This document shows positions 1-47,764 of a DNA stretch of 47,764 bases, one piece after another. This DNA comes from a virus. The position numbers and the translations under genes were made by a program. The notes beneath the pieces were generated by a model, which saw only the letters and a program-made list of their open reading frames with translations, was not told the DNA's origin and did no database searches. The number at the start of each line of letters is the position of its first letter. Position 1 is the stretch's first letter. Where the stretch lies: positions 1 through 47,764 of the IMG/VR virus record IMGVR_UViG_3300049033_000044; one strand, written 5' to 3'.

Positions 1-103
1 GCTCGCTGGAAATGCGTGATCGAAGATGATTGAGAATCTCATCCTCGATACCGATTTTCCGGAAGTCTTCCCAGACTTTCCGAAATTGTTCTTTTTTGCT
101 CAT
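1..103 (-). CDS. Redundant copy (via the contig overlap) of the first 34 codons of the 74-aa gene 47516..47740
   Basis: Same DNA as 47638..47740; ATG = complement of 101-103, RBS AAGGAA 5 nt upstream. Confidence 0.6.
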   Translation of the reverse strand, partial: MSKKEQFRKVWEDFRKIGIEDEILNHLRSRISSE

Positions 104-127
104 GGCGATTCCTTGTTGCGTCCGGCG
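1..127. repeat. Terminal overlap of a circularly closed contig (nt 1-127 identical to nt 47638-47764); unit genome 47,637 bp
   Basis: Base-by-base comparison of both window ends. The ORF 47516..47740 runs through the junction and its ATG reappears at nt 103..101. 127 nt equals a common assembler k-mer, so this is most simply an assembly closure overlap, not proof of physical terminal repeats. Confidence 0.95.
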
Positions 128-354
128 TCGAGCCGTGAGTTTCCCTCGGCATTCCAGTGATTCGATCGGACTGCGCTCCCGGTGACCGCTTCGGCTCGGC
201 TACGCCTCGCCCGGTCACCTCCGCTTGTCCTTCGCTCGAATCACTGGAACCTTTGCCTCGGTGACAACGCTCCGGGCACTAATCGCGTTGCTCCATCCTT
301 CGCCCCTCTGCGAGGGGCTCGGCTGAATCAAGCTTACGTGCCCTCCGGCTTTTG
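104..354 (-). promoter_or_regulatory. 251-nt non-coding, strongly structured leader/intergenic element upstream of the scaffold-capsid gene block
   Basis: No credible ORF on the transcribed strand. Nested perfect inverted repeats at 152-165/236-249 (14 bp) and 181-188/212-219 (8 bp). Hairpin GCCCCTC-tgc-GAGGGGC at 302-318. Confidence 0.5.
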
Positions 355-358
355 TCAA
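331..358 (-). promoter_or_regulatory. sigma70-like promoter candidate TTGACA-N16-TAAGCT
   Basis: -35 TTGACA = complement of 353-358 (overlaps the TGA stop of the 90-aa gene). -10 TAAGCT = complement of 331-336. The spacer is 16 nt. Confidence 0.35.
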
Positions 359-627
359 CTCACTGGTCTCTCCTGGGCCGCCTTGATTTGAGTTGTCGAT
401 TCAAACCAAAAGTGAATAGGCATGACTCGGTGTTGGCTGGGGAGAATATCCTCCTCCCCAGAGCGACGTTCGTAAACGACAAACTTGACGCGTTCGTCGG
501 TCCAGAGCGGATCATCTTTCTTGAGTCTGACTCGGGCTTCACCGAGTTCAGTGGATGATCCGTCCAGCGGTACGGAAGCAAAGAGCAGTCCGTCATCGCA
601 GGGGACGTTGAAGAGTGCGCGCCGCAT
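355..627 (-). CDS. hypothetical protein (90 aa)
   Basis: ORF track 355..678. Start moved to ATG 627..625, directly after the portal stop (629-631), which removes a 50-nt overlap. Confidence 0.55.
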   Translation of the reverse strand: MRRALFNVPCDDGLLFASVPLDGSSTELGEARVRLKKDDPLWTDERVKFVVYERRSGEEDILPSQHRVMPIHFWFESTTQIKAAQERPVS

Positions 628-628
628 T

Positions 629-2569
629 TTATCCCCCGATTCCCGGCATTGCCATTGGTGTTGGACTCGATGCTCCATTTGCCTGCGGCCCTCCTGCGGC
701 AGCTGCCGGATCGACAGGTGCTTCGTTGGTCAGAGTCTTCTGCATGAGGAACTCGCCGAGATCCGTGCCGATACTGAGCAAAGCGGAATACAAGGTCCAG
801 AGTCCCTGCATATCGAATGCCTGCGCTGCAGATGGGTTTTGAATCAGAGCAAAGATCAGGCTGCGCACCTGCTCGGCTGCTGCTTCGCGAACCATCTGGC
901 CGAGACCACTGCTGAGGACGTCGTTGATTTCCTCGGTAGTCATCTCCTTGAATCGACCGGCTTTGGTCTTGTCATTGTTGACGATGTTGCGGAACATAGC
1001 ACGACGAGTCGGCATCATCAGCGAAGAGTCAAGCATTCGGGCGAACATGTGCAGCTTGCGCATGGCACCCTGCATGACAGCCGTCACCTGATTCGTCACG
1101 GCTCGGTCGATCGAAGCAACCTGCTGCGGCAAAGCCTGATTCGGGAAGAACTGGCGCATTAACTCAAGAATGCTGCCGGCATCACGAACGTTGTTCGACG
1201 TGTCGGTTGCGTTGTTCTGCACTTTGGTGAACGCTGTGCGAACATCTTGACCGGGTTTCTTTGTCGGAATCACGCCAGCGACTTCGCCCGGACGAACCTT
1301 GCTTGCGTCGATAACTGACGGGTCGTATACCGTCGTGCCATAAACAGAGCCGCGAAGATTCGCAACGTGCGTGTTGATCAGAAATGATGAAAAGCGACCG
1401 AACGGACGAATCAGCTCGGCCAAACTCCGAGCGGCTTCGTGCAACTGATCCACGCGCATACGTCCGAGATAAATCGGAATCTCGACGGCATTGTCGATTT
1501 CTTCCATGTGCACGACGTACATGCAGTCGACGATCTTGACTCGGTACAACGCAAGCGGATTCAGACCTTCGTAGTCAATGTCAAACTGCTCACGATTGAT
1601 CCAGATGTAGACGTTGATCACTTCGTGGCCGCGCACTTGAATCGACGACGTTGCCTTCGAGCCGAGTCCAAACGAACCCCACTGATCTTCAGTCATCGAC
1701 GCGCCATTCTCGCCCAACTCAGAACGACCGTCGGCGCCATCGGGCTCGATCTTGGATTCGCTATACGGCGAGCGGAAGTGACTCGCGTCGGTCCTGGACT
1801 TGTCGACGTTGTCGCCTTTCTTGGTGTCGAGCAACTTCGTCAGATGCGCAAAGCCCTGCTTGGTTCCTTCGCGAATCAGCCAGAAGCGATTCTTGAGCTC
1901 GATATAGCCGGCCCATTCAGCTTCCTTGTAAACCTTACGGACGTCTTCGACGCTGGGGTCCCAGATGGTATTGTACATGTCAAGACCGCGCAGGACGTTT
2001 CCAGATTCACCGTCCGGATTCGGTTCTTGCCAGCAGAGTTCGAATCCGCCAAGATTGTACTTGCAGAGCGAACGCATCGTGAACGCGACCGACGAGAAAT
2101 AGTCGGAGGACTTAGAATCCTGATTCATGATGTCGACGAGAGTCTTGATGGACTCGGACGATGTGCGCTTGGCTGGATTCGCGTAGAAGCTGCCGCCGAT
2201 CGGAGCGAAGACGTCAGCGAAGAACGCACTCGTGTCTTCGACGTGAGCTTCGGCCACTGGCAGATTCATTGGAATCGCTTGCGAACGGCCGGTTGATTCT
2301 TCGGTCTTGTCCCGGAACGAATCCTCGGGCGAAAGCTTCTGCCAAGTCGACAGCGAAAGATCAGTGCGGCCGTAGCGACCTAGCCGACGGAGTCGCGACG
2401 TCTTATCATCATCGACTCGTGCCAGCACATGGTCACGAATCTGATGGTGGAACATTTCATCTTCTTCCAAGCGCTCATTCAGGCTGGGTGGATTCGCAGC
2501 AGGCTCAAACTGATCCTCCTCGAATTCCATCAGGTGAGCGCCCAGAGTCGTAACATTGGTGCCTAACAT
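629..2569 (-). CDS. portal protein (646 aa)
   Basis: Large ORF immediately downstream of the large terminase and upstream of scaffold and capsid; size typical of podovirus portals. Start set to ATG 2569, preceded by AGGAGG (complement of 2575-2580); the track start 2617 would overlap terL by 38 nt. Assigned by synteny and size, not by motif. Confidence 0.7.
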   Translation of the reverse strand: MLGTNVTTLGAHLMEFEEDQFEPAANPPSLNERLEEDEMFHHQIRDHVLARVDDDKTSRLRRLGRYGRTDLSLSTWQKLSPEDSFRDKTEESTGRSQAIPMNLPVAEAHVEDTSAFFADVFAPIGGSFYANPAKRTSSESIKTLVDIMNQDSKSSDYFSSVAFTMRSLCKYNLGGFELCWQEPNPDGESGNVLRGLDMYNTIWDPSVEDVRKVYKEAEWAGYIELKNRFWLIREGTKQGFAHLTKLLDTKKGDNVDKSRTDASHFRSPYSESKIEPDGADGRSELGENGASMTEDQWGSFGLGSKATSSIQVRGHEVINVYIWINREQFDIDYEGLNPLALYRVKIVDCMYVVHMEEIDNAVEIPIYLGRMRVDQLHEAARSLAELIRPFGRFSSFLINTHVANLRGSVYGTTVYDPSVIDASKVRPGEVAGVIPTKKPGQDVRTAFTKVQNNATDTSNNVRDAGSILELMRQFFPNQALPQQVASIDRAVTNQVTAVMQGAMRKLHMFARMLDSSLMMPTRRAMFRNIVNNDKTKAGRFKEMTTEEINDVLSSGLGQMVREAAAEQVRSLIFALIQNPSAAQAFDMQGLWTLYSALLSIGTDLGEFLMQKTLTNEAPVDPAAAAGGPQANGASSPTPMAMPGIGG

Positions 2570-2579
2570 TAACCCCTCC

Positions 2580-4121
2580 TTAGAACGGGACGTGTTGAAG
2601 TTCATTGACGTAATCACCAGTTGAATCGCCTTGCATTAGCGCCATGCGCTGGTGAAGCAAACCACTCGATTCAATAATGGTGCCGGCATCTGCCCAGACG
2701 ATTGCACCGTAGGCCGCAGAGTCCGGAAGATCGTCTTTGGCCTTTTCCTGCGTTGGATCGTAAAGCGCAAGACTCTGGAAGACTTCTTCCTCTTCTAGGG
2801 CAATGGCGTAGCTGCCAGTTGCCACAGAATTGACAAATGCCAAGATTCGAGACGCCTTGGCCTTACCACCGGATTGCAACCCGATGAACTCAAACAGGTG
2901 ACTCGGAATCTGCATAGCTTCCAGCTTGGCTTTGAACAGCGGAATCAGAAGCCGTTGAGCGGCCTGAGTCTCGATGCCCCATGCTGAAAGATTCCAATAG
3001 TAGCTAAGCTCCAAGAATATGTCCAGAAGCTTATCCTCGCCACAGCGAACCACTCGATGGTCGACGATGATGGGCTGAGTAAGCTCAGGAATCTTGACAT
3101 GCACTGTGAACGCCGAGTAGTCGTTGTACGCATTCTCCCCAAAAGCTGGGTCAAGAATGATAATGCCCTGAGTCACTTGATCCGGAACCGGGCGGCTGGG
3201 CCGATATGAATTGTGCATTTGAGTCTTGAACACGCTGTCGGCCGTGAGATTCATCATCTCATAAACCCAGACATGCCCAATACCCTTGGACCTATAATCA
3301 GCGTAATCAGCAAGTAGCGACTCTAGCGAATGCATACCCGGCCAAAGAGGTCGCAACTGACCGGTCAATCTGTCACGGATAATCGCGCCATAGACCGTTG
3401 GATTCCACTTTGGATCTTTCGACAGACGATAAAGTGCTGTCCGCTTGTTGACCATATTGCCGAGCATGATTCGAACAGATCGTTTTGCGGAGGCCTTCAA
3501 CAATGCGCCAAAAAACCACTGGTCATGCTTTGCTTGAGTCTTGTCGTCAGCACTCGTGTTGTAGTCTTCACAGTCGTCAATGATGACAATCTCTGGACGC
3601 TTATTCCCAATTAGAGTCCCGCGAACCTGTTGATCCGCGCCAAGAGCTTTGAGCAGAATGTACTTGCGCGGATTTGTCGGCGTACCGATTTCCATGATCC
3701 ACAGCTGTTCTGAGTCGTTGGATTTGAGAACTCGCGAAGGACCCCAAACTGTTTGATCGTCATCACTCGTTAGCCAAGCAAGAATGTCTTTGCAGGCATT
3801 CTTTGCAATACCTGCCGTCAGACTCGCGTAAAGCGCAAAACTGAATCGAGAGAAACGCAAAAACAGAATCACCGCTAGCTTGGTAATGGTTGATTTAGCA
3901 TGTCCGCGCGGCACGCAGAACAACTTGTGCAGGTGGCCGACGATGAAATCGGGAGAGTTGACTTGATCTAGAATCTCAAGCAACTCATCCCAAATCTCTT
4001 CGTGCAGCTGCGGGACTTCCAAGTCAAGTTCGTCTTTCAAATAGAAAGCCAGAACCGACACCACATCATTTCGCAGTGCCGTTCGAAGTTCTGCGATGTC
4101 GACTCTGACATTGACTTCCAT
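2580..4121 (-). CDS. terL: terminase large subunit (513 aa)
   Basis: Walker A-like CVPRGHAKST and Walker B-like PEIVIIDDCED in the N-terminal half; C-terminal nuclease-like half (GIIILDPAFGEN...). ATG 4121 overlaps the upstream stop (TGATG) and is preceded by GAGGAAG. Confidence 0.85.
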   Translation of the reverse strand: MEVNVRVDIAELRTALRNDVVSVLAFYLKDELDLEVPQLHEEIWDELLEILDQVNSPDFIVGHLHKLFCVPRGHAKSTITKLAVILFLRFSRFSFALYASLTAGIAKNACKDILAWLTSDDDQTVWGPSRVLKSNDSEQLWIMEIGTPTNPRKYILLKALGADQQVRGTLIGNKRPEIVIIDDCEDYNTSADDKTQAKHDQWFFGALLKASAKRSVRIMLGNMVNKRTALYRLSKDPKWNPTVYGAIIRDRLTGQLRPLWPGMHSLESLLADYADYRSKGIGHVWVYEMMNLTADSVFKTQMHNSYRPSRPVPDQVTQGIIILDPAFGENAYNDYSAFTVHVKIPELTQPIIVDHRVVRCGEDKLLDIFLELSYYWNLSAWGIETQAAQRLLIPLFKAKLEAMQIPSHLFEFIGLQSGGKAKASRILAFVNSVATGSYAIALEEEEVFQSLALYDPTQEKAKDDLPDSAAYGAIVWADAGTIIESSGLLHQRMALMQGDSTGDYVNELQHVPF

Positions 4122-4930
4122 CACTTCCTCACAATATCGTCAGACATGGTAGAAAGAGTCCCGATGTCCTCAGGCCCAAGCATCTCGATCGTGTCCGACA
4201 GTCTTGTCGACTCACCATCAATAACTTTCTCGCGCCCAAGTTGTTTCACGGTTCGCTGAGTCAGAGTCAACTGAATCGTTCCCAGCGAACCGGGGCCTGG
4301 AAGCTCGGGAGGAGAGCCATCCGACCCATACTGATTGATGTTGACCTGGACTCCGCCAGGGACTGTCGGCTGATTCATACCCGTTTTCCTCGTTGCGGAG
4401 TTCGCCACCTTCGCCACAGCCAAGATGTCACTCGCAGTGCTGACTCGCCCAGTCTCTACGAGCTTGGTGAGCTTTTTGAGCGCGGCATGTTCGAGCCGAT
4501 CCCAGTCGAAACCTCTTTTCCTCAGCGATTCCCTCTCAAGAAGCGCATCGAATCGCTTTGCAGACCACTCGGTGGGATTTGTAGCCTCCACCAGCATTTG
4601 AAGCTCGGGAATTGACGTCCGGAGTCGCTTAGCGAGCGCCACCATTGACTCAGAATCCCAATTCTCATCGCCATCCAGATACGCATCGAGGATATGCGTC
4701 TGAATCTCGCCCCAAGGAAGCCAATCGGCCACGGCCCCACCACTTACCGGGGCTATTTCTGCTGGCTGACTCACACGAGTGGGGTCATTTGCGCCTACCC
4801 CCTCCCCTTCCGCATTTTCTCCCTGAATCAGAAGATCAATCTCCTCTTGATTCATAGCCAAAACTTCATCGAGGGCAGCCTCAGCATCAAACGACCCCAT
4901 GGGCGCATCGAACTGACTGAATCTATTCAT
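4121..4930 (-). CDS. hypothetical protein (269 aa); positional candidate for the small terminase subunit
   Basis: Directly upstream of and translationally coupled to terL. Strong RBS GAGGAGG before ATG 4930. No motif-level support for the function. Confidence 0.55.
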   Translation of the reverse strand: MNRFSQFDAPMGSFDAEAALDEVLAMNQEEIDLLIQGENAEGEGVGANDPTRVSQPAEIAPVSGGAVADWLPWGEIQTHILDAYLDGDENWDSESMVALAKRLRTSIPELQMLVEATNPTEWSAKRFDALLERESLRKRGFDWDRLEHAALKKLTKLVETGRVSTASDILAVAKVANSATRKTGMNQPTVPGGVQVNINQYGSDGSPPELPGPGSLGTIQLTLTQRTVKQLGREKVIDGESTRLSDTIEMLGPEDIGTLSTMSDDIVRK

Positions 4931-5992: not shown

Positions 5993-6031
5993 AAAAACAA
6001 AAAGAGCCGCAAGGTGTTATCCCTGCGACTC
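5993..6031 (-). terminator. rho-independent terminator after the 309-aa early gene
   Basis: On the - strand: 8-bp stem GAGUCGCA/UGCGGCUC (one G-U pair; plus-strand 6024-6031 and 6004-6011), a 12-nt loop, then UUUUUGUUUUU (plus-strand A-run 5993-6003). Confidence 0.6.
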
Positions 6032-6058
6032 TCAAGATTGGTAGATGCTGGCCGATTC

Positions 6059-6988
6059 TTAGAAATCAATCTCGGCGGCGGCAGCAAGAGCCGTTTCATC
6101 GATCTTCGGCATCGTGTAGGTGAGGACCGTCGAATCGCGACCATCAACCCATGCAATGATTGCCGACGGATCAACCGGCGCTGGCTTACCATCGGTGTCC
6201 ATGAAATTCGGAGCGGCGGAGATCATGCCGCGCGCGATCTTCTCCCACATACCGATTGCTTCCATTGCCTGAGTCCGTGGGTTGGCCTTGGCATAGGCGG
6301 AGGAACGAATCGACTTGATAACGTCAGCCTTCGGAATCCCGACAAGCGCACCATGCACGGCCGGGGCCTTCGTCTTGAGAACGCCTTCCTTGAAGGGCTG
6401 CCACAGGGAATCAAAGGCTTCGGTATCGCCGGCGATCGATTCACGGGCGCTGCTGATGATATCTTCGATGGTTGCGGGCATTCCGGCAACAACCGTCTTG
6501 AAGTCGTCGGCGGTGAGGTCGGGCTGGCGCAGATTCGAAAACGCAACGTCAATGGCTTCCCGTTCGATCAGCTTTGCGATCCAGTCGCGAACCTTGGCAT
6601 CTTCGAGTCGTTCAAGGAAGTTGTCGGCGGTCGGGGCTTCGAAGACGACGATTGCCTTGACTCCATTGGTGTTGGACTTCTTGTCGCGGACGCCGACGGT
6701 TGCGACGCAAACCTGCTCGGCGGCTTCGATTCCATCGGCTCGCATAGAGAGTTCGACGCCGAAGAACGGATTGCCTTCGGAATCGGCGGTCTTGGCTGCA
6801 ACGGCTTCAATGTGTGCTGCGGCCTGTTCATAGGCGGATTCAGTCACAGTGGACTTGCCGCCCTTGTCGTCGGTCACTTCGACGTCGCGAGTCGTGAAGA
6901 ATACACGTGCGCCGCCCAATTCGTTGTTCAGGGTGCGAATCTGTTCTTTGTTCAGAAGAACGTTGAGTGCGGAGTTGTTCGTGGTCAT
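6059..6988 (-). CDS. hypothetical early protein (309 aa), C-terminus ...AAAAEIDF
   Basis: ORF track; RBS GAAGGGA before ATG 6988; coding-like GC3-rich codons; followed by its own intrinsic terminator. Confidence 0.75.
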   Translation of the reverse strand: MTTNNSALNVLLNKEQIRTLNNELGGARVFFTTRDVEVTDDKGGKSTVTESAYEQAAAHIEAVAAKTADSEGNPFFGVELSMRADGIEAAEQVCVATVGVRDKKSNTNGVKAIVVFEAPTADNFLERLEDAKVRDWIAKLIEREAIDVAFSNLRQPDLTADDFKTVVAGMPATIEDIISSARESIAGDTEAFDSLWQPFKEGVLKTKAPAVHGALVGIPKADVIKSIRSSAYAKANPRTQAMEAIGMWEKIARGMISAAPNFMDTDGKPAPVDPSAIIAWVDGRDSTVLTYTMPKIDETALAAAAEIDF

Positions 6989-7119
6989 GGTCTGATTCCC
7001 TTCGTGGAATGTTGATGTGAGTCAGTCGACTCGGTTGCGAATCACTCTCTGCGATCCGTGATTAGAAGTATGCCAGCGATTTCGCAGATTGCAAGTACCA
7101 AAATGCGATTTTTCGGCGA

Positions 7120-7848: not shown

Positions 7849-7875
7849 TGAATCGTCTCCTATTTCCGTGTGCAT

Positions 7876-7887
7876 ACGCACGTGCGT
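7876..7887. promoter_or_regulatory. perfect 12-bp palindrome ACGCACGTGCGT in the leftward 5' leader (possible operator)
   Basis: Read directly. Lies between the predicted start site (~7959) and the RBS (7857-7861). Confidence 0.3.
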
Positions 7888-7965
7888 GATTCTAGAATGA
7901 GTAGCGACTATGCAGGTTCAAGGGTGCGGGATTATTGCCTATTTTACCCCTCCCCTACGGCTCAA

Positions 7966-7993
7966 AGTATACGCCTACAGAATTTCCTGTCAA
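7966..7993 (-). promoter_or_regulatory. leftward sigma70-type promoter TTGACA-N16-TATACT
   Basis: -35 = complement of 7988-7993 (consensus). -10 = complement of 7966-7971 (5/6 match to TATAAT). Sits in the divergent control region ~110 nt upstream of the first leftward gene. Confidence 0.6.
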
Positions 7994-8082
7994 TGTTTGA
8001 TCTACTAACAAAAACCCTATTTCTGGGAAGCGAATAAATTCTGTGATTTCACTACGGAAATTCAAGGGCTGGTGACTCAATG

Positions 8083-8273
8083 CACTCGCATGAACTATGC
8101 TGACTCCACTCGTGCTAACTACGCTGCCAATAACACTCGTGCTCACTCGCATGAATCACTCGCAAGGACTGAGTCCTATGATGCACTCGCAATGGCCGCA
8201 CTCAATCGAATCACCAGGCACTCGCAATAGCCACTCACAAGAATGGACTACCGAGTCAGCACGAGTGAGTGCG
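8083..8273 (+). repeat. Array of nine direct CACTC-core repeats (five exact CACTCGCA) plus two inverted cores; iteron/operator-like
   Basis: CACTCGCA at 8083, 8144, 8157, 8184, 8219. CACTCGTG at 8107, 8134. CACTCAAT at 8199. CACTCACA at 8232. Inverted CACGAGTG-AGTGCG at 8260-8273. Spacings are 10-27 nt. Located between the two divergent promoters. Confidence 0.85.
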
Positions 8274-8336
8274 TCCTGCCGCGCTAGATTTGAGATCCGA
8301 ATCAGAGCATCGGACAAAATTTCATCGTACGCGTGG

Positions 8337-8366
8337 TTGCTTATCGTTTTCGAAATAACATATAAT
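8337..8366 (+). promoter_or_regulatory. rightward sigma70-type promoter TTGCTT-N18-TATAAT
   Basis: -35 at 8337-8342; -10 at 8361-8366 (consensus); A/T-rich stretch upstream. The first rightward gene starts at 8392. Confidence 0.6.
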
Positions 8367-8391
8367 GCGTGAGTTAACAACGGAGACGAAC

Positions 8392-8781
8392 ATGCCCCGC
8401 AAACTCGATATCCCTGATTCAGTCGCCGAAGAATGGCGCCGACGCATGAACGAAGGACAGAGCATTGAATCGATCGCCAGAGCCTATGGGCTGAATCACG
8501 GCACGATTCGCAAACGGCTCGGCATCACTGCATTCGAAGGCCGTCTTGGGCGGTCCGCTGAGGGCCGGGAGATTCACAAACACCTCATCCACATGGACGT
8601 GCAAACGCAGCAGTGGATCGCAGACGAATCTCGACGCCTAAACTGCACCCACGGACTCTTCGTGGAGTTCTGCATCGAAGCAATGAAGCGGGCATGTGCA
8701 ACCTTGCCTGTGAGTCGACAAGACCTCAAACAGCACATGGATATGATGCGCGAGAAGGAATCCGGCAATGGCCAAGTCTGA
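8392..8781 (+). CDS. DNA-binding regulator: N-terminal helix-turn-helix plus C-terminal ribbon-helix-helix-like segment (129 aa)
   Basis: GQSIESIARAYGLNHGTIRKRL reads as a classical HTH. HLIHMDVQTQQWIADESRRLNCTHGLFVEFCIEAMKR looks like a strand-helix-helix. Start set to ATG 8392 (GGAG at 8382-8385), because the track start 8365 lies inside the -10 box. Confidence 0.6.
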   Translation: MPRKLDIPDSVAEEWRRRMNEGQSIESIARAYGLNHGTIRKRLGITAFEGRLGRSAEGREIHKHLIHMDVQTQQWIADESRRLNCTHGLFVEFCIEAMKRACATLPVSRQDLKQHMDMMREKESGNGQV

Positions 8782-9739
8782 ATCAACACAGTATGCGACG
8801 AAGTCCGATATCGAGACTTTGCATCAGATGTTCACAGTTCTTGCGAGTGGACTCGATGAAATCCGCAACACGCTGCACACTCGCTTGAACGATGATCTCC
8901 AAGTGATTCTAGAAAACTTTGACCAACTCTCGACTGCGGGCGATCGGCACTATAATGACTTGCTCAACGGCATGGTCAGCATCGACGATCGCATGGAAGG
9001 AGTCGTTGCGGAGACGGTAGAGTTGGCTCGCACGAGTGCCAAGCAATTCGATATCCTCATGGGTATGCTCAATGGCATTGCCGAGGGCCGTCCTGAATCA
9101 CAATCTGCGAATCAGCCAGCTGGAGTTGCTGGTGAATCAGACTTGCGTATTCTGAAGCACAGGCTCGACAGCCAATCGCAAGTCATGGCCGACATGCAGC
9201 TTCGAATCAATGATTTGGAGCACCACGTCGAGAAGCAGAAGAAATTCAATGAATCGATGAACGATCGACTTCGGAATCTCGAAATTCTCATCAACGCACA
9301 AGACCAGATCGTCACACGGCTTCTTGGCCGAATCAATCCTTCGGAGTCCCACCATGAGCCGCAGACCGACAATCTTTCCGAACGGCGTGGAGAAGAGGAG
9401 ACTCCCGAGACCGGAATCTCTATCTCTGCAGGATATCGCGTCGAACGAGTGGCCTACAACCAAGGTAACATCATCGAAGTCGTCCAGCGATGGCTCGATT
9501 CAACCCCAGAGTTCTTCCAAGGACTCAACGGCGGAGTCTGGCCAGTCCCAACAGCGATCAAGAACTTCTCCGAGTGGAGCACAATCGAATTCGCTCTTCT
9601 CTCAGCAGCCGAGCGACTCCGCAGACACCGGGCAGAAAAACTCCGCACTCAACTCGGAGCTTTCGGGCCTGGCAGCCACGCTTATCCGCGCCTTAAGATT
9701 CAAGGAGAAAATGCTCTCAAGGAATCTGACAAAGGCTAG
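8768..9739 (+). CDS. hypothetical protein (323 aa), long coiled-coil-like central region
   Basis: ORF track; RBS GAAGGAA 7 nt upstream; 14-nt overlap with the upstream gene. Confidence 0.7.
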   Translation: MAKSESTQYATKSDIETLHQMFTVLASGLDEIRNTLHTRLNDDLQVILENFDQLSTAGDRHYNDLLNGMVSIDDRMEGVVAETVELARTSAKQFDILMGMLNGIAEGRPESQSANQPAGVAGESDLRILKHRLDSQSQVMADMQLRINDLEHHVEKQKKFNESMNDRLRNLEILINAQDQIVTRLLGRINPSESHHEPQTDNLSERRGEEETPETGISISAGYRVERVAYNQGNIIEVVQRWLDSTPEFFQGLNGGVWPVPTAIKNFSEWSTIEFALLSAAERLRRHRAEKLRTQLGAFGPGSHAYPRLKIQGENALKESDKG

Positions 9740-9857
9740 GGCCAAATGCCATGAGTGCCCATCGGAGTGGCGGGCAATTTTGCTTCCGAATCGCAGGTCA
9801 CCATCCGGCTATCACATCCACATCGCTTGTGATTGCGGATTCCAATTTCACGAATAA
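9711..9857 (+). CDS. possible small zinc-ribbon protein (48 aa)
   Basis: MLSRNLTKARAKCHEC...IACDCGFQFHE carries a CxxC...CxC pattern. AAGGAG at 9702-9707, although only 3 nt from the ATG. It fills an otherwise empty gap (9740-9871). Taken from the 3' part of track ORF 9324..9857. Confidence 0.4.
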   Translation: MLSRNLTKARAKCHECPSEWRAILLPNRRSPSGYHIHIACDCGFQFHE

Positions 9858-9871
9858 CAAGGAATCATCCC

Positions 9872-10327
9872 ATGTCTATCTCTCTCATACTTCACACTCT
9901 CGTTCGATTCGACTATGAGACCTCCATGGCTTCTGAACCTTTGCCGGCATGGATGATTCGACTCATCAGCCTCAACAACATCGAATTCAACATGAATGAT
10001 CGCAAGTGGTACTGGCAGCGCAACACTGTCATCAATGACGGCGACTATATCGTACGAATCGATCCGAAGCTCCTCGAACTGGCTCGACTAGCCAATGGCG
10101 AAGATCCACGAGTCAAGGATCCTTCCGAGGCCTTTCTCAAGACAATCATGGGCCAGATTCAAGGCAAGGAAGACGATGCCTGGCTCGACGGATTCGGCTA
10201 CGGAGTCATGGCCGCCGATAAACTCACATCGATCATTCGTGAAGATGGGATTCTCGCGGAATCGATCGATGCCCAGCTCAAGACCATGTACGATGAACTC
10301 GACGGAGCAAAGGAGACTCGGCAGTGA
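9872..10327 (+). CDS. hypothetical protein (151 aa)
   Basis: ORF track 9833..10327 (TTG). Start moved to ATG 9872 with AAGGAA 7 nt upstream. Confidence 0.65.
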   Translation: MSISLILHTLVRFDYETSMASEPLPAWMIRLISLNNIEFNMNDRKWYWQRNTVINDGDYIVRIDPKLLELARLANGEDPRVKDPSEAFLKTIMGQIQGKEDDAWLDGFGYGVMAADKLTSIIREDGILAESIDAQLKTMYDELDGAKETRQ

Positions 10328-10656
10328 CGACTCTCTCCGCATCTGACACACTCGATCGACTCATTGAGGCTGGATTTACATTCAGCCTCGAATTTCCTCA
10401 TCCTTCGAATGAACTTGAAGTCGAGTGCGAGTTCGAGATTGACTCATGGGGCAGCTCCAGCAACGGATGGGACGATCCGGGTGATGCGGCTGAATTCCAC
10501 CTCATCGACGTCACAGTCACGAACAAAGCCGACGAGCTGATTCACACCAAGGCTGAATTCAGCCAAGCGCAGTGTGAGTGGCTTGAGCAGCATTTCAACG
10601 ATGCGATTCAGCAGAAGTGCGCTGAATATGACGGGTTTAATGACCATGACGACTGA
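10324..10656 (+). CDS. strongly acidic small protein (110 aa; 26 Asp+Glu versus 4 Lys+Arg)
   Basis: ORF track. The GTG start overlaps the upstream stop (GTGA), with AAGGAG 8 nt upstream. Confidence 0.7.
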   Translation: MTTLSASDTLDRLIEAGFTFSLEFPHPSNELEVECEFEIDSWGSSSNGWDDPGDAAEFHLIDVTVTNKADELIHTKAEFSQAQCEWLEQHFNDAIQQKCAEYDGFNDHDD

Positions 10657-11518
10657 AATCGATCTCAAGCACTTTCCGGGTCCGGGGCACTATGCCTCGG
10701 ATTCCCTCGGCCCGACTCGCTCCGCTCATCTCCCTATCTCCATATTTGCACTACATGTGCAGCTGGTGACTCAGGACGGCAACATTCTGAGCAGTGAGCA
10801 GAGCAAGGGGTATTACTTCTTCCGCGACTCACACATCCCTCTGCCGCGCGCATGTACTGTGCTGGCATGGAATCGCATTTGTGTGCTCGGCAAACCGGAT
10901 TCGAAGCAATACTATCTCCCATTCCTCCCATCGCTGCGAGAAGAGGATGAAGTCGGGTCGGCTATCGGTGAGCGTGGCTCGCGAATCGCATCTCTGAGTC
11001 GCAAAAGCAAATATCATATGCGTGACTCCGAAGATCGAGTCGTGTGGGGCCCAGTCTACGGTTCCCAACTCGGCGCAAGCAATGTTCTGTGGCAAACCGA
11101 GCGCAGTGACTTTGCTGAATCACTCGTAACGGACTCCATGAACTTCATCGCCCCAGCCACCCACGAATCAATCCGCGATCGTATGACCTTCCTGGCTCAG
11201 CACGGATTCCCAGCCACTAATGCACTGATGAAGCACCTCAACATTCCGCGCATCTATCGACTCTTGTTTCAGTTTCTTGATCGATCGGCTGTGCAAGCCT
11301 GGGTGAGTCACTATAATTCATCGATGGCGCTGGTTAAGGTGGATCCAGACTCCATCGCGGCGGATTTCAAAGACATGACTCATCAGATGGTCGAAGCTCG
11401 GAAGACTCAGAAAGAGGAATCCGATGAAGTAAGTGATGACAATTTCGCTGATTCGCCACGGCGGAATAAAATTCCAAAAAATGGCCGTTTTTCGGGTATT
11501 GGCGACATGGATTTTTAA
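10646..11518 (+). CDS. hypothetical protein (~290 aa), C-terminus ...KNGRFSGIGDMDF
   Basis: ORF track 10574..11518. The start is uncertain: in-frame ATGs at 10601, 10628, 10640 and 10646, none with a clear RBS. 10646 minimises overlap with the upstream gene (stop 10654-10656). Confidence 0.6.
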   Translation: MTTEIDLKHFPGPGHYASDSLGPTRSAHLPISIFALHVQLVTQDGNILSSEQSKGYYFFRDSHIPLPRACTVLAWNRICVLGKPDSKQYYLPFLPSLREEDEVGSAIGERGSRIASLSRKSKYHMRDSEDRVVWGPVYGSQLGASNVLWQTERSDFAESLVTDSMNFIAPATHESIRDRMTFLAQHGFPATNALMKHLNIPRIYRLLFQFLDRSAVQAWVSHYNSSMALVKVDPDSIAADFKDMTHQMVEARKTQKEESDEVSDDNFADSPRRNKIPKNGRFSGIGDMDF

Positions 11519-11560
11519 TTTTTTCGGGGCTTGGCGCAAAAATTTTCTAAAATTTCACCC

Positions 11561-11589
11561 TTGCCCCTCTTTGGAAATTTTCGTATTAT
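11561..11589 (+). promoter_or_regulatory. internal sigma70-type promoter candidate TTGCCC-N17-TATTAT
   Basis: -35 at 11561-11566; -10 at 11584-11589; A/T-rich upstream tract. Lies in the 111-nt gap before gene 11630. Confidence 0.4.
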
Positions 11590-11629
11590 TGGCGCGTCGA
11601 AACAACGTAAAACCTAGGAAAATAGTCCC

Positions 11630-11821
11630 ATGCTCGCTAAGTCTGAATCAGTCAAAATCCGCCCCAACATGAAAGCAACCGCTCTATACTTTGCTCCTGA
11701 ATCGGGCGATTTGGTAGAGCGCAACTTCGATCTTTGGCGCGAAGAGCATCGCAAGAACTTTTTCCGCCTGATTCAGTGGGCGGTTTGCAATAAGATTGAA
11801 GTACGCGTTCGCCATTACTGA
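11630..11821 (+). CDS. hypothetical protein (63 aa)
   Basis: ORF track; AGGAAAA upstream. Confidence 0.55.
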   Translation: MLAKSESVKIRPNMKATALYFAPESGDLVERNFDLWREEHRKNFFRLIQWAVCNKIEVRVRHY

Positions 11822-11862
11822 GTCGGTCCTAAACCCTACTGCATACAAGAAAGGCTTACACC

Positions 11863-12894: not shown

Positions 12895-12907
12895 TTGGAG
12901 TTGAGTC

Positions 12908-16577: not shown

Positions 16578-16578
16578 T

Positions 16579-18007: not shown

Positions 18008-18010
18008 ATC

Positions 18011-18679: not shown

Positions 18680-18680
18680 T

Positions 18681-18890: not shown

Positions 18891-18949
18891 CTCGCTAGCG
18901 CAACGAGACCAGATTCAACATCGCGCAATCAAAAACGAAGGAAACCACA

Positions 18950-35277: not shown

Positions 35278-35568
35278 TTAGATTTTCGGCTCATAGCTGA
35301 TCACATCAGCCGCATCGACGGTGATGGCAGCAATTGCCGTGTTGTTGACTGCGGCCGACGAATCGACGATCGGAGCCAGTGAGTAGTCGACGACCATGAC
35401 CATGTTGATCGGGTCAGGATTGGTCGGAATCGACGGAAAAAACCAGAACGGCTTGCCGAGACCCGGCCGCGTGATGACACTGTTTCCGACATTGAGCGCC
35501 GGATTCGTCGTGATCAGCTTGTTGATCGTTTCGCCGTTCTGCAGAGTTTCATAAATGAGTTTGCCCAT
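35278..35568 (-). CDS. hypothetical virion-module protein (96 aa)
   Basis: ORF track; tight packing. Confidence 0.6.
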   Translation of the reverse strand: MGKLIYETLQNGETINKLITTNPALNVGNSVITRPGLGKPFWFFPSIPTNPDPINMVMVVDYSLAPIVDSSAAVNNTAIAAITVDAADVISYEPKI

Positions 35569-35571
35569 GAG

Positions 35572-36042
35572 TCACCTGATTGCTGTAATCTCGACGTTGA
35601 ACTTCTCCGGATCAGCGGAATTGCCGTTGCTGTCCGTCGATTCGACAACAAAGTAATCCGGATACTTTTCGATCACACGCATAGACATGTCGTGATCATA
35701 GACTTTGGGGTAGTAATCCAGATTCTCGAAGTAATCAACCAAGTACACTTCGTAGAGTCCGGGCGCCACCCATGCGATTCCCATGATGCTGGAATCCACG
35801 GCCGTCACGCTGGTGATCTCACCTTCGAGAATCTCCAGATCGTAAGCAGCCGCGTAGAATTGAACTTCGACTTCTGCCGGAATCTCCTCCGGCGGAACAT
35901 ACGGCGGAATGACGTTGCCGAGGGCTTCCCACTCGGCAATTTCACGGCGATGACGATTCGACATATCATCTGGGACAAACAAGGTCTGTTCGTCCAAGAT
36001 AACGACAATCAAACCAAATTCATTGAATCCAGCAACTTCCAT
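35572..36042 (-). CDS. hypothetical virion-module protein (156 aa)
   Basis: Track ORF 35572..36048 (GTG). ATG 36042 is preferred because GGAG lies 8 nt upstream. Confidence 0.6.
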   Translation of the reverse strand: MEVAGFNEFGLIVVILDEQTLFVPDDMSNRHRREIAEWEALGNVIPPYVPPEEIPAEVEVQFYAAAYDLEILEGEITSVTAVDSSIMGIAWVAPGLYEVYLVDYFENLDYYPKVYDHDMSMRVIEKYPDYFVVESTDSNGNSADPEKFNVEITAIR

Positions 36043-43027: not shown

Positions 43028-43172
43028 TGATTTGCTCCTTGGTTACGAGTCGCTCTTTGACCAGTGCATTCTTGACTGCCTGCTTCCCTTGCGCAGAACC
43101 GACAAGATACACTGGAATCGAAACTAGGGGCACCGCGATAAGTGCCCCCAGCCCCATCCAAAGCCATTTCAT
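42960..43172 (-). CDS. inner-membrane spanin (i-spanin, 70 aa)
   Basis: N-terminal TM helix WLWMGLGALIAVPLVSIPVYLV followed by a charged helical periplasmic part. The ATG overlaps the lysin stop. Confidence 0.6.
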   Translation of the reverse strand: MKWLWMGLGALIAVPLVSIPVYLVGSAQGKQAVKNALVKERLVTKEQISEIDNLVFDADESALCDILGGC

Positions 43173-44053
43173 CAGATGACTTCTTCCGAACGAATCCGGC
43201 GATAGAAGTAGTACGCCGCAGTGGCGCCCATGATGACGACAACGCCGGCCAGGCCGTATTGCAACGGCGGTGAATCCGCAGTAGCCGAAATGATGGTCGT
43301 GATCAACGCTGCGATAGCCGACAGGGATTCGGGCTTCGAGATTGCGTCGGTTGCGGTGGGCTTGCTCGGAATCGCAGGTGCTTCCATCTGCGGTGCGAGC
43401 TCTTCGGGCTGCTCCATCGGAGTCGACGGAGTCTTCTGCGTGTTCGGGAAGTCAGCAACCTGACGAACGTATTCGTCGTAGATCTGAATGCCGAATCCAA
43501 TGACACCAGGCTGACGCTTGAACACGCCCTTGGGATCGACGCCGGTGAGTCGATACTCCCAGCCACGACCATTGGATGCCCAGCCTTGCTTGCCCTTGAT
43601 CTGTCGGCAGAATTCGAGATGCCGGAGAACAAAAGCAGTGATCAGCGCCGGGACTCCCTCAGACCACTTCGTCACGCCATTCATTGTGGCAGGACCAAAA
43701 TGGCCGTCGATCTTTTCGTTGTAGAGCCCATAAGCTTGCAGAACGATCTGCAGGATCTTGACTCCGCGACTTGGTCCGGACATGACTGCTGTGTTGAACA
43801 TGGCGTAGTCGAGACCTGCAGGAAGCTGATCGCAGCCAGCCATCGGCCAGTAGAATCGACGATAGATTTCTTCAGCGACCGCCAACGTGAGGTTCTTGAC
43901 CTCATCCACTGTTGCCTGGCGGCCATAGAATCGGCTCAGAGTGCCGATTGTGATTCCGTACTTGGTCGGGCCACCCCGATCCGTTTTTGCATTGACGTAA
44001 CCACCTTCATGCCCGAAGTTAATCACCAATGCTTTTTTCAGCGTTTGTCGCAT
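43172..44053 (-). CDS. GH108-family muramidase (endolysin) with PG_binding_3-like region and C-terminal membrane segment (293 aa)
   Basis: GHEGGYVNAKTDRGGPTKYGIT is the GH108 EGGY catalytic motif. The downstream region resembles the usual peptidoglycan-binding domain. The last ~55 aa contain two hydrophobic helices (LSAIAALITTIISATA, GLAGVVVIMGATAAYYFY). Confidence 0.8.
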   Translation of the reverse strand: MRQTLKKALVINFGHEGGYVNAKTDRGGPTKYGITIGTLSRFYGRQATVDEVKNLTLAVAEEIYRRFYWPMAGCDQLPAGLDYAMFNTAVMSGPSRGVKILQIVLQAYGLYNEKIDGHFGPATMNGVTKWSEGVPALITAFVLRHLEFCRQIKGKQGWASNGRGWEYRLTGVDPKGVFKRQPGVIGFGIQIYDEYVRQVADFPNTQKTPSTPMEQPEELAPQMEAPAIPSKPTATDAISKPESLSAIAALITTIISATADSPPLQYGLAGVVVIMGATAAYYFYRRIRSEEVI

Positions 44054-45440: not shown

Positions 45441-46643
45441 TCAGACCGAAGCAGCAGCGGTCTGGATGTTGCGCATGATGCCGCAGAGAGGCGCGCCTTT
45501 GAGCTGGAATCCCAGTTCGTCGGCGATGTAGCCTTCGTCGGCGTCGACACCGTTGTTGGTGTTGTTATCGATCGTGAAATCCTGAGTCCAGGTGTCACGA
45601 AGCACGCGCTTGGAGACGAGGCCGGGATGCATGACGTAGAGTTCCTTCGACCAGGTCGGGTTCTCAGTCATCATCGGATGCGTCAGCAGAGTCAGGCTGT
45701 TCGTGATAAACGTCAGCTTGGTGACCTTGAAGCCGAATTCCGAATCCTCGACCGTGAGATCGTAGCGGGTGTCCTTGCGGACCATCTGCTGCACCAGATT
45801 CAGCACGAACGTGCTGGTGAATGCGATTCGCTCGTTCGGAAGACCCTTGGCATTCCGATTGAAGATGACTCGCATAAAGTCCTGGATGCCGGCCGTCGAC
45901 ATGGCGCCGCCAACTGCGTTGTAAGCTGCCGACTGAACCAGACCGCCGTAGTCTTCGATCTGAGCCAGAACGCCGTTGGACGTGCGCATTTCCTTCGAGT
46001 TGCGAGTCGTGACCGACCGGCGACCCCAGAGGAACGAACGTTCGATATCCTCGGCATGGTACTGAGCGCACTGCTGCTTGGAGTCGGCAAGCTTGCTGCC
46101 GGTCAAGTAGCTGATTGCCTTGACAGTCCCGGTGACAGACCAGCCGTTCTTGAAAATCTGCACGTAGTTGACGTACGATTCGCCGGCCTGCATGACAGGA
46201 GTGGGCTTGCCGCCGCCTTCTTCGAAAGCCGTGCCGATCAACTGGAGAGTCGCGTTGGCGGCGACAGCAGCAGCGGTCGTGCCTGCGAATCCACGGAGAA
46301 CCGTCATCGAGGTGTTGGAAGCAATGCCGGTGATGAAGATCATTTCACCGGTCGACTCGACCAGGAGGATCGAATTCGGAGTCCAGATACCGGTATCGAC
46401 GACGGTGAAGGTCGTGTCACCGATAAGCTGGCCGGCTGCGGAAACCGCACCATTGCCCGAGATGTGAGAATCTTCGATCCAGCTGTACGAAGTGTCGCTG
46501 ACTCGCTCCTCCTTCATGCCGGCGGAGAGAGCGAGAAGCGGAGCCGTGCCGCCGAAGTCCATGCGCAGAATCCGGCTGGAGAGAGTCGGCTGTCGATCCC
46601 CCACGATGCTGGAATGCGAAGCAAATACGCCACGAATTGCCAT
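45441..46643 (-). CDS. major capsid protein (400 aa)
   Basis: Follows the scaffold gene and is followed by a terminator. Size and strongly biased codon usage fit an abundant HK97-fold capsid protein. Start moved to ATG 46643 (AAAGGAA upstream) from track start 46691. Confidence 0.75.
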   Translation of the reverse strand: MAIRGVFASHSSIVGDRQPTLSSRILRMDFGGTAPLLALSAGMKEERVSDTSYSWIEDSHISGNGAVSAAGQLIGDTTFTVVDTGIWTPNSILLVESTGEMIFITGIASNTSMTVLRGFAGTTAAAVAANATLQLIGTAFEEGGGKPTPVMQAGESYVNYVQIFKNGWSVTGTVKAISYLTGSKLADSKQQCAQYHAEDIERSFLWGRRSVTTRNSKEMRTSNGVLAQIEDYGGLVQSAAYNAVGGAMSTAGIQDFMRVIFNRNAKGLPNERIAFTSTFVLNLVQQMVRKDTRYDLTVEDSEFGFKVTKLTFITNSLTLLTHPMMTENPTWSKELYVMHPGLVSKRVLRDTWTQDFTIDNNTNNGVDADEGYIADELGFQLKGAPLCGIMRNIQTAAASV

Positions 46644-46667
46644 TGTTGTGTTCCTTTCAAGAATCCA

Positions 46668-46699
46668 GGCCATCCATTTCATTCCAGACACGGATGGCC
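46668..46699 (-). promoter_or_regulatory. intercistronic stem-loop between the scaffold and capsid genes
   Basis: GGCCATCC (46668-46675) pairs with GGATGGCC (46692-46699); the loop is 16 nt. Possible processing site or attenuator. Confidence 0.4.
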
Positions 46700-46715
46700 T
46701 AGACCCGTGTTGGAA

Positions 46716-47519
46716 TCACGATTTTCCGAACATTGCATCCAAGGCATTTGCGCCCGTCTTCATGCCGGATTTGTTGTCACCACCGGAACGGTTGTTTCCG
46801 TTGGAATTGAAGCTCTGATTCGAGCCACCGCGCAACTGAGCAAGAGCCTTGCCGGTAGCTTTCGCAGCTTTCTCCGGCGTCATACCCTTACCAAGTGCGC
46901 TCTTGTAAACTTGGAGTCCAAGAGCTTTGTCGGCGCCCTTGAGTCCCAGGCTGTTGAACGACTTGTTCAGCTCGGCTTTCTTGTTGGTCGAAACCGACGC
47001 CGTTTGAATCTTCTTTTCCAGCTTCGGCACGATGATGCCGAGTGCGTGCTTCAGCACCTCAGGAATCACCGAGATGACTTCCTTGGCCAAGTTCTGATTC
47101 GTCGTGGTCAGCAACTTAGCGACCTGGGCCGAATCAGATGCGTCGAAGTCGGCCGGGATATCTTCCGGCTTGAGACCGATGCCGTTGATCTTGGAGTTCA
47201 GCAACTCGCCGAGAGTCTTGGTCGAATTCTGAATGCGGGCAGCTTCGTCCGGATCGTCATCATCCGAATCGTCGTCATTGCCGAAATCCAGTTCGCCGTC
47301 ATCGTCGTCTTCGTCATTGCCCAGCAGATCGTCGACCAGGTTTTCCGATTCAAGATCGATCTCACCCGGTTTGCCGCCCTGATTGCCAGGCTGCTGTTGC
47401 TGATTCCCATTTTGATTGTTGTCGTCGGATCCTCCGCCGGTGCCACCATTGGAGTTATCGACCGGCGCGAAAATGGGCAAGAACGACCAAAACGAAATTT
47501 TGCCATTGTTCAGTTTCAT
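46716..47519 (-). CDS. scaffolding protein (267 aa)
   Basis: Immediately upstream of the capsid gene. Gly/Asn/Gln-rich N-terminus and an extremely acidic tract (DDLLGNDEDDDDGELDFGNDDDSDDDDPDE), then a helical C-terminal half. Confidence 0.6.
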   Translation of the reverse strand: MKLNNGKISFWSFLPIFAPVDNSNGGTGGGSDDNNQNGNQQQQPGNQGGKPGEIDLESENLVDDLLGNDEDDDDGELDFGNDDDSDDDDPDEAARIQNSTKTLGELLNSKINGIGLKPEDIPADFDASDSAQVAKLLTTTNQNLAKEVISVIPEVLKHALGIIVPKLEKKIQTASVSTNKKAELNKSFNSLGLKGADKALGLQVYKSALGKGMTPEKAAKATGKALAQLRGGSNQSFNSNGNNRSGGDNKSGMKTGANALDAMFGKS

Positions 47520-47740
47520 GACTGCTTATTCCCTTCGTCAAGATTCAGGACTTCGTCGATTATACTAGGCAGCTGCTCCACGAGCTGAAACTGCATAGCG
47601 ACTTTGAATGCATCCTCAGGAGTCTTCACTTGATGAAGCTCGCTGGAAATGCGTGATCGAAGATGATTGAGAATCTCATCCTCGATACCGATTTTCCGGA
47701 AGTCTTCCCAGACTTTCCGAAATTGTTCTTTTTTGCTCAT
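47516..47740 (-). CDS. hypothetical protein (74 aa), spans the contig junction
   Basis: ORF track; RBS AAGGAA; its stop overlaps the scaffold start (ATGA). Confidence 0.6.
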   Translation of the reverse strand: MSKKEQFRKVWEDFRKIGIEDEILNHLRSRISSELHQVKTPEDAFKVAMQFQLVEQLPSIIDEVLNLDEGNKQS

Positions 47741-47764
47741 GGCGATTCCTTGTTGCGTCCGGCG
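47638..47764. repeat. Second copy of the terminal overlap (identical to nt 1-127)
   Basis: See the first feature. Confidence 0.95.

Follow-up and report, generated by a model that had tools for sequence, protein, structure and literature searches.

Our analysis shows that the phage genome in the IMG/VR record IMGVR_UViG_3300049033_000044 (positions 1 to 47,764; this whole stretch of 47,764 nucleotides is called the window below) carries a genome-wide array of the palindrome GANTC, the target word of the methyltransferases CcrM and M.HinfI. The word occurs far above expectation, the excess results from selection on the DNA itself, and the sites keep an ordered spacing. Both properties are conserved across a clade of uncultured phages in which the individual sites turn over, and the phage has no methyltransferase gene. 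We put at about 40% the probability that GANTC is here a positively selected docking and methylation array for a conserved host protein that reads this word, most simply CcrM, by which the sites would be bound and methylated.

The window contains 842 GANTC sites by exact count, with A as the central base in 245 of them, T in 236, G in 192 and C in 169. Two of the sites are contributed by the last 127 bp (47638-47764), which are an exact copy of positions 1-127, and the unit of 47,637 bp therefore holds 840 sites, or one per 56.7 bp. This is 4.5 times the number expected from base composition. The original prediction, made by reading the window alone, had claimed a roughly four-fold excess after counting by hand 11 sites in 1-720, 8 in 7861-8390, 10 in 20521-21180 and 11 in 35281-35940; all four counts are exact and the excess is of the claimed size, while the density extrapolated from them (one site per 60-65 bp) was slightly too low. 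All four variants of the word were said to occur, and they are not only present but enriched, which fits a specificity of the CcrM/HinfI type: GAATC/GATTC reaches 5.6 times and GACTC/GAGTC 3.7 times the expectation, and these pairs take ranks 1 and 2 among all 512 canonical 5-mers. Both pairs exceed a first-order Markov model 2.7 times; their excess of 1.24-1.33 times over the maximal-order model is uninformative, because the 4-mers on which that model is built (GANT/ANTC) already absorb the signal.

The decisive comparison is with shuffled versions of the genes. Shuffling synonymous codons within genes, which keeps both protein and codon usage, leaves 371 ± 13 sites (observed ratio 2.27, z=35), and shuffling whole codons leaves 269 ± 13 (ratio 3.13, z=44); both expectations are conservative because the preserved codon usage is itself inflated by the motif. 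The genome-wide shuffle ratios of control palindromes are 1.03 for GATC, 1.1 for TCNGA, 0.87 for GANNTC and 1.03 for GTNAC, while TCGA (1.2-1.4) and some words overlapping GANTC are mildly raised. A ratio of 1-1.5, or an excess shared by many 5-mers, had been named beforehand as the mark of a plain compositional effect, and the values obtained are of a different kind. The coding sites use all three codon phases (177/259/364), and non-coding DNA is denser than the genome at large, with 40 sites in 1,592 nt, or one per 40 nt. Therefore the GANTC excess is a selected feature at the level of DNA, as had been proposed, and not a by-product of amino acid or codon choice.

The selected unit is the 5-mer. 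It had been suspected that the true word might be longer; the flanks show a weak symmetric YGANTCR preference, and since this bias is weak, a longer word is not indicated. Variants of GANTC with one mismatch are not enriched (ratios 0.55-1.5, similar to those in the sister contig described below). GANTC reads the same on both strands and is symmetrically flanked, so there is none of the strand asymmetry seen in signals such as Chi or the FtsK-orienting polar sequences (KOPS). The three perfect inverted repeats listed in Table 1 are present as originally described, with a GANTC in every arm.

The sites are also ordered along the DNA, which the original prediction had missed, as it had the constancy of site number across the clade, the oppositely biased sister lineage and the GANTC-free island described below. 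The coefficient of variation (CV) of the gaps between successive sites is 0.58, compared with 0.99 for random placement (z=-12.9), and synonymous shuffling abolishes the order (CV 0.97). The array extends through both gene blocks with 10-27 sites per kb, an under-dispersed distribution (index of dispersion 0.46), and the counts per gene track gene length more tightly than a Poisson process would (chi-square per degree of freedom 0.55). Among all short palindromes, enrichment and low gap CV are combined in GANTC alone.

The form of this order can be read from the pair-correlation function g, pooled over eight genomes with 2,852 sites. It is about 0.35 at 5-20 bp, with a minor bump at 13 bp, rises to a sharp peak of 1.8 at 24 bp, falls to 0.3 at 31-37 bp, returns to about 1.0-1.2 at 42-43 and 48-55 bp, drops to 0.55 at 58-62 bp and peaks again at 67-69 bp (1.5, with a shoulder to 82 bp), after which weak troughs follow at 83-89 and 110-114 bp. 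The peaks of pair distance, which are a statistic of the sequence and not a footprint, lie at 24 bp (nearest neighbours), to a minor degree at 13 bp, and then at about 42, 53, 68, 80, 94 and 105 bp. In the troughs the pair frequency goes down to 0.38 of expectation (z=-12.7). The trough values of g equal the neutral background, that is the shuffled density divided by the observed one, and therefore sites at these distances are unfavoured rather than forbidden. The commonest gap between nearest neighbours is 24 bp, and the nearest-neighbour gaps show the same multimodal pattern. Successive gaps are nearly independent (a near-renewal process), with 24+24 triplets at 0.5 times the expected number; therefore the preferred distances arise without intervening sites. 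The order corresponds to a virtual lattice with steps of ~13/26 bp, whose coherence extends over ~110 bp.

Several other accounts of this spacing were rejected. The Fourier spectrum has broad power at 13.1-13.6 and ~25 bp and no sharp genome-wide line, so the order is short-range and not that of a periodic lattice running through the whole genome. The sequences between sites 24 bp apart share nothing, which disposes of a longer motif or repeat, and the central bases of such sites are not complementary, which disposes of hidden hairpins. Nor do the preferred distances share a phase at 10.5-10.9 bp per turn, as a helical-phase explanation would have it. Combinations of two basic gaps, 24 and 43 bp, would give peaks at 86 and 110 bp, but the observed function has troughs there. 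No other k-mer was found at a fixed offset from GANTC that could fill the empty lattice points.

The same array is found in the relatives of this phage. They were retrieved with terminase, capsid and polymerase probes, and 13 further contigs were sampled, of which IMG/VR supplied 11 and the metagenome records of JGI, ENA and NCBI one each. Their proteins are 30-70% identical to those of the window, with 44-70% for the marker that was compared (terminase, capsid protein or polymerase). All 13 are enriched in GANTC, 3.6-4.9 times, with one site per 52-73 bp, at guanine-plus-cytosine (GC) contents of 48-56% (53% in the window); a check of relatives for the same bias had been suggested at the outset, and it came out in favour of the claim. 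The gap CV is 0.41-0.74 in the nine relatives for which it was computed, and the relatives alone, with the window left aside, reproduce the spacing profile. The favoured central base varies, GAATC being highest in most genomes and GACTC in two of them (L006 and L024), which fits a reader indifferent to N. The terminase gene contains 24, 25, 24 and 25 sites in four independent lineages, with 3-8 of them at the same aligned column. Since the numbers are equal and the positions differ, what selection maintains is the number and spacing of the sites, while their individual positions turn over. The early genes are poorly conserved even within the clade, while motif and spacing stay constant. The size of the clade is suggested by at least 185 homologues of the polymerase in public metagenomes, many of them encoded by contigs 46-52 kb in length. 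Of the listed polymerase homologues, about a fifth (P0062, P0064, P0071, P0075, P0077, P0084 and others) have 880-928 amino acids (aa) and the rest ~700 aa, an indication that the gene has fused with a neighbour in some members of the clade.

A sister lineage shows the opposite bias. The contig IMGVR_UViG_3300025018_000242 has the same gene order and proteins that are 47% (capsid), 40% (terminase) and 40% (polymerase) identical to those of the window, and its GANTC is depleted to 0.35-0.40 times expectation with a gap CV of 1.05. The depletion lies entirely in GAWTC, with 1-3 GAATC and GATTC sites together per 20 kb versus 27-29 of GAGTC and GACTC, which is a normal frequency for these two. 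GTAC is absent from the 38 kb of this contig, and ATGCAT, TGATCA, TCATGA, ACATGT and GAATTC are also strongly depleted. This is the classical pattern of restriction-type avoidance, and it suggests that the sister's host has many restriction systems, including a GAWTC-specific one. Variants of CcrM specific for GAWTC occur in Rhizobiales and SAR11 (PMC8919816), which fits the avoidance of GAWTC in the sister lineage. Thus the same class of sequence is under strong selection as in restriction-site avoidance, with the direction classical in the sister and reversed in the window's clade. The cultured distant relatives are not enriched either (Caulobacter phage Kuura 0.31 times, Tiera and Mel-JY34 about 1). 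The comparison with the sister covers 38 kb and leaves out about 5.4 kb with the helicase and early genes; the conserved genes of the replication module (exonuclease, Sak4, g20561, g21730, PolA, the 75-aa g24626, the deoxynucleoside monophosphate (dNMP) kinase and the primase-helicase) are all also present in the sister, and therefore none of them explains the trait.

The window has avoided words of its own. After codon-preserving shuffles GGNCC stands at 0.5-0.6 times, CCNGG at 0.6 times and TANTA at 0.3 times the expectation; the window lacks CCCNGGG, ACTAGT, CTATAG and TACNGTA altogether and has a single copy each of GCATGC and TACGTA. Such depletion is probably a trace of restriction avoidance that the host has left.

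One stretch of the genome is free of the motif. The longest gap in the window (26460-26829) lies within the primase-helicase gene, and the homologous ~100 codons are GANTC-free in three relatives, L026 (14132-14450, 318 bp), L027 (13999-14401, 402 bp) and L028 (5890-6251, 361 bp), although the primase-helicase proteins of the four genomes are merely 43-63% identical. About 6 sites would be expected per island at the density of the clade and about 3 at the shuffled background. Excess synonymous conservation within the island was looked for and not found. The island is missing in two more distant enriched genomes (L013 and L030), and L029 does not cover the region. It is possible that it is a replication origin, a packaging entry site or another region that is kept free.

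The reader of the array was sought among the genes of the phage. About 50 open reading frames (ORFs) of the window were scanned against Pfam and PHROGs and no methyltransferase was found, in agreement with the original prediction; the catalytic motif (D/N/S)PP(Y/F/W) is absent from every real ORF of the window, and the called genes of the relatives L031 and L034 contain no methyltransferase. Among the scanned ORFs there was likewise no match to a p6-like or other DNA-binding family of that kind, and no nucleotide-modifying enzyme was recognised among the window genes. The product of g6059-6988 was considered as a reader and rejected, since this protein, although conserved in the clade, is acidic and occurs in the sister as well. 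The genes g11863, g10574, g20561 and g15894 gave no sequence matches in the PDB. The AlphaFold model of g11863, which has 10 detectable homologues in all, is all-alpha and without a fold match (predicted local distance difference test score, pLDDT, 71.6).

Judged from its endolysin, the phage probably infects a Rhizobiales-type alphaproteobacterium. Full-length homologues of this endolysin (residues 2-290 of 293, 33-44% identity) come almost only from Rhizobiales/Hyphomicrobiales (Shinella, Rhizobium, Agrobacterium, Ensifer, Mesorhizobium, Pseudochrobactrum and Kaistia), plus Paracoccus. No tRNA genes were found in the window, and no relative of the terminase was found in 185,579 species genomes. 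The original prediction had put forward a host factor of an alphaproteobacterium as the possible reader; this is a reasonable candidate in view of the endolysin homologues. A further endolysin homologue lies on JAHREI010000004.1, an assembly labelled Bacillus subtilis SK6B4, and has the length and similarity of the homologues in Pseudochrobactrum; this assembly is probably contaminated or mislabelled.

How a host-read array could work may be outlined as follows. The palindrome and its symmetric flanks imply a two-fold symmetric reader, which would be one conserved protein with CcrM/HinfI-type specificity that accepts any central base. CcrM acts as a dimer by which DNA is bent, unwound and opened into a bubble of 4 bp (PMC6787082); a CcrM encoded by the host would bind, open and N6-methylate each site. 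Selection would keep the sites at a density of about one per 57 bp and would place them so that neighbours avoid overlapping one protein footprint, for which the background-level pairs below 21 bp imply a size of ~20 bp. Sites in register would be favoured, at 24 bp and then on the ~13/26-bp lattice that stays coherent over ~110 bp, and this combination of peak and virtual lattice implies a cooperative occupancy in which bulky reader molecules would sit on neighbouring sites side by side. The phage DNA would thus be uniformly coated or marked, at 10-15 times the site density of a GANTC-poor alphaproteobacterial chromosome. The gain to the phage could be a self-mark or a shield against silencers or nucleases, or else the capture of CcrM or GcrA. 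We favour a conserved host protein as the reader because motif and spacing are invariant, the early genes of the phage evolve fast, and its conserved genes are shared with the sister. CcrM is well conserved in Alphaproteobacteria, the genomes of which under-represent GANTC at least 2-fold (PMC8919816).

Several points weigh against this host-read array. The host is pointed to indirectly, by endolysin homology. In model species CcrM is limited to a part of the cell cycle and may be absent during much of an infection. A methyltransferase that merely marks its sites has no obvious need for lattice-like spacing, and gaps at multiples of ~13 bp without intervening sites point to a polymer on the DNA, which is no known property of CcrM. 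The conserved GANTC-free island is not explained by such an array. Moreover, phages of CcrM-bearing hosts show the opposite bias, as Kuura does, and GANTC is depleted in about half of the pelagiphages (PMC9516812). Alphaproteobacterial genomes also under-represent the word (PMC8919816), and positive selection for it in this clade is left unexplained. The word itself is the one that CcrM and M.HinfI recognise, palindromic and with a degenerate centre, and selection on it has already been described for hosts as well as phages (PMC8919816, PMC9516812); however, the CcrM target is under-represented in every reported case elsewhere, and here it is over-represented and regularly spaced in a phage without a methyltransferase.

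A more far-reaching version, which we offer tentatively as a possibility, is that the code of this clade templates a cooperative filament on the whole chromosome, formed by a host protein of the CcrM family or by another protein. Density and register, and not a modification made by the phage, would then mark its DNA as distinct from that of the GANTC-poor host, and the island would stay uncoated, perhaps as a replication origin or an entry site for packaging.

One would argue that the reader could as well be a protein of the phage itself. According to this explanation, the main rival, which we nevertheless consider rather doubtful, an architectural protein as yet unrecognised among the phage genes reads GANTC and forms a filament with alternating two-fold axes, by which the DNA is organised, protected or activated and distinguished from host DNA. 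The model for it is protein p6 of phage phi29, which places a dimer on every 24 bp and a monomer on every 12 bp, in a head-to-head/tail-to-tail filament over the genome (PMC10899789). The numbers seen here are similar, with a commonest gap of 24 bp and further gaps on a ~13/26-bp lattice even where no sites intervene, although in our case they come from sequence statistics alone. The trait is confined to one clade and does not extend to the sister, whose capsid protein is 47% identical; orphans without a family match make up most of the early genes; and the island could be an origin or packaging site that has to remain uncoated. However, p6 recognises the bendability of DNA and not a sequence motif, phi29 DNA is without motif enrichment, and no p6 homologue was found in the window. 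No candidate gene is at hand: the replication genes conserved in the clade all occur in the GAWTC-depleted sister (of which ~5.4 kb are not covered, so that an early gene specific to the clade may exist), and the early genes, such as g11863 with its few homologues and unmatched fold, are poorly conserved, which is hard to reconcile with a motif and spacing that do not vary.

An unlikely alternative is that the sites serve as a decoy. Many sites multiplied by many replicating copies would soak up CcrM and/or GcrA of the host, thereby blocking cell-cycle transcription and division or drawing GcrA and RNA polymerase to the phage DNA. It is known that depletion of CcrM blocks division in Caulobacter and that inhibitors of host division are common in phage genomes. 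In favour of a decoy are the probable alphaproteobacterial host and a site density 10-15 times that of GANTC-poor alphaproteobacterial genomes; moreover, distances below 21 bp lie at background with 24 bp the commonest, as if as many sites as possible were to be occupied simultaneously. However, a sponge needs no order past the nearest neighbour, so that the troughs at 31-37 and 58-62 bp and the scarcity of 24+24 triplets find no explanation, the island would be purposeless, and the avoidance of the motif by other phages of CcrM-bearing hosts would be difficult to understand.

Still less probable, in our opinion, is that GANTC marks frequent entry points for a DNA transaction of the phage, be it recognition by a primase, site-specific nicking or a Chi-like signal for the RecD-like helicase or the PD-(D/E)XK nuclease. 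The phage does possess a Dda/RecD-like helicase, a PD-(D/E)XK exonuclease, a Sak4-like protein, a DUF3987 primase-helicase and a dNMP kinase, and a palindrome would function in both orientations. The distant capsid relatives Pseudomonas phages 119X and PaP2 belong to a group known for localised nicks, and distantly related podoviruses of the LUZ24/tf type have nicks at specific sequences. Nicking at 840 two-strand sites, however, would cut the genome to pieces; signals for priming or of the Chi kind are required per kilobase and not per 57 bp, and the known ones are strand-specific and not palindromic. Such a role predicts neither a footprint-sized exclusion zone nor lattice spacing, and the depleted sister has the same enzymes. 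The primase, nickase and packaging enzyme listed as phage candidates in the original prediction are without specific support.

The explanation without any function, a compositional by-product or a mutational or repair drive that turns near-cognate words into GANTC (much as CCWGG is made more frequent in E. coli by very-short-patch repair), is largely refuted and deserves hardly any credit: the low maximal-order Markov ratio and the raised TCGA and overlapping words speak for it, but the excess survives shuffles that keep protein and codons (2.3-3.1) with unrelated palindromes at ~1, no one-mismatch variant is depleted as strongly as a conversion donor would be, and a drive cannot give ordered spacing, equal site numbers at different positions in orthologues, or a conserved island.

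The genome that carries the array is that of a podovirus-like phage. The 127-bp terminal repeat appears to be an overlap from the assembly of a circular or terminally redundant genome; the length of this direct repeat matches a common assembler k-mer size. The genes form two blocks (Table 1). The minus-strand block runs from 27,050 through the end to 7,881 and encodes the SU10-type major capsid protein, an adaptor, the GH108 endolysin, a virion protein of 1,688 aa, the candidate portal and the large terminase. The plus-strand block (8,097-27,023) encodes, besides the enzymes named above, a divergent family-A polymerase, and its Sak4-like protein is an annealing protein. Kinases for dNMPs are typically met in phages that break down the DNA of the host or make use of unusual nucleotides, and the one found here hints that nucleotides are salvaged from host DNA after its degradation. 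At the nucleotide level the window matched no cultured phage; the nearest cultured phages by capsid, at 24-30% identity, are Pseudomonas 119X/PaP2, Caulobacter Kuura, Polaromonas Tiera and Microcystis Mel-JY34.

Some further features of the genome deserve mention. Between the convergent ends of the two blocks (27000-27045) lies a hairpin of 20 nt with 85% complementarity, bordered by runs of A and T and with a GANTC in its loop, which looks like a bidirectional terminator. Upstream of the exonuclease, 15894-16577 (+) encodes a basic protein of 227 aa (isoelectric point 9.2) with an Ala/Pro/Lys-rich stretch of 95 residues at the N-terminus; five of six relatives retain it, no match to it was found among protein families or in the PDB, and it may bind DNA. 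Many long ORFs run antisense to real genes, among them 45627-47588 (+), 6014-7015 (+), 20537-21571 (-) and 13124-13924 (-); one of 653 aa sits opposite the capsid and scaffold genes, and at 6014-7015 the conserved frame is the one on the minus strand. These antisense frames are probably shadow ORFs that result from the rarity of stop-codon complements (low TA, CTAG and TTAA content).

Table 1. Features of the window, with positions in the numbering of the record and strand where assigned.
Feature	Position	Strand	Remarks
Perfect 14-nt inverted repeat	152-165/236-249		GATTC in one arm, GAATC in the other; sites ~80 bp apart
Candidate portal	629-2617		662-aa ORF; resembles the annotated portal of phage Tiera
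Large terminase	2580-4124	-	Marker for finding relatives; 25 GANTC sites
Perfect 9-nt inverted repeat	5207-5215/5232-5240		GAGTC and GACTC in the arms; sites 25 bp apart
Divergent control region between minus- and plus-strand blocks	7861-8390		Limits as set in the original prediction; 8 GANTC sites
Divergent family-A DNA polymerase	22343-24556	+	Marker that retrieved the homologues (at least 185)
Conserved 75-aa protein (g24626)	24626-24853	+ (block)	Near polymerase and dNMP kinase
Perfect 10-nt inverted repeat	24849-24858/24871-24880		GATTC and GAATC in the arms; sites 22 bp apart
dNMP kinase homologue	24934-25584	+	phrog_139, E=1e-11
DUF3987 primase/helicase	25467-27023	+	Holds the GANTC-free island
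GANTC-free island	26465-26828		C-terminal third of the DUF3987 primase/helicase gene; 369-bp gap between sites 26460 and 26829
Endolysin	43172-44053	-	GH108 domain and peptidoglycan-binding domain (Pfam match); used for host inference
SU10-type major capsid protein	45441-46691	-	Marker separating the enriched clade from the depleted sister lineage

The array shares single properties with other known systems. Chi, the DNA uptake sequences (DUS/USS), KOPS and the highly iterated palindrome HIP1 of cyanobacteria are likewise short words that lie far above expectation in coding DNA, are selected at the DNA level and are read by proteins. However, these words have 8-12 nt (Chi 5-8), are mostly oriented, occur irregularly once per 0.3-5 kb and belong to cellular genomes, while the array described here consists of a 5-bp palindrome every 57 bp, ordered on the scale of a footprint, in a clade of phages. 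The GATC clusters of the SeqA/Dam system (oriC, the pac site of P1) are also palindromes of an adenine methylase, whose reader binds pairs of sites and polymerises. However, those clusters are local, covering tens to hundreds of bp, and helically phased, while the GANTC array is genome-wide, and its pairs at 10-11, 21 and 31-32 bp lie at background (g about 0.3-0.6), so that the helical phasing of the SeqA type is not seen. No report of GANTC or any other methylase palindrome enriched and regularly spaced across a phage genome was found in open-access papers and preprints. We therefore place the array outside the kinds of feature described so far.

Phages are expected to lose short palindromes that are targets of methylases or restriction enzymes, and here the number and spacing of such a palindrome are held constant over deep divergence. 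This raises the questions of why GANTC is counter-selected in Alphaproteobacteria and in most of their phages, and of what occupies GANTC during an infection. The combined signature of an observed/expected ratio >3.5 and a gap CV <0.75 offers a simple screen for similar systems built on other motifs. If a protein array does read the sites, this would be a new way to organise or label a viral chromosome, a self-marking by the density and register of a motif that requires no modification enzyme encoded by the virus. It would also be a rare case of a DNA-protein architecture that can be read from sequence statistics alone, and the CcrM-type epigenetic machinery of the host would gain a new role in infection.

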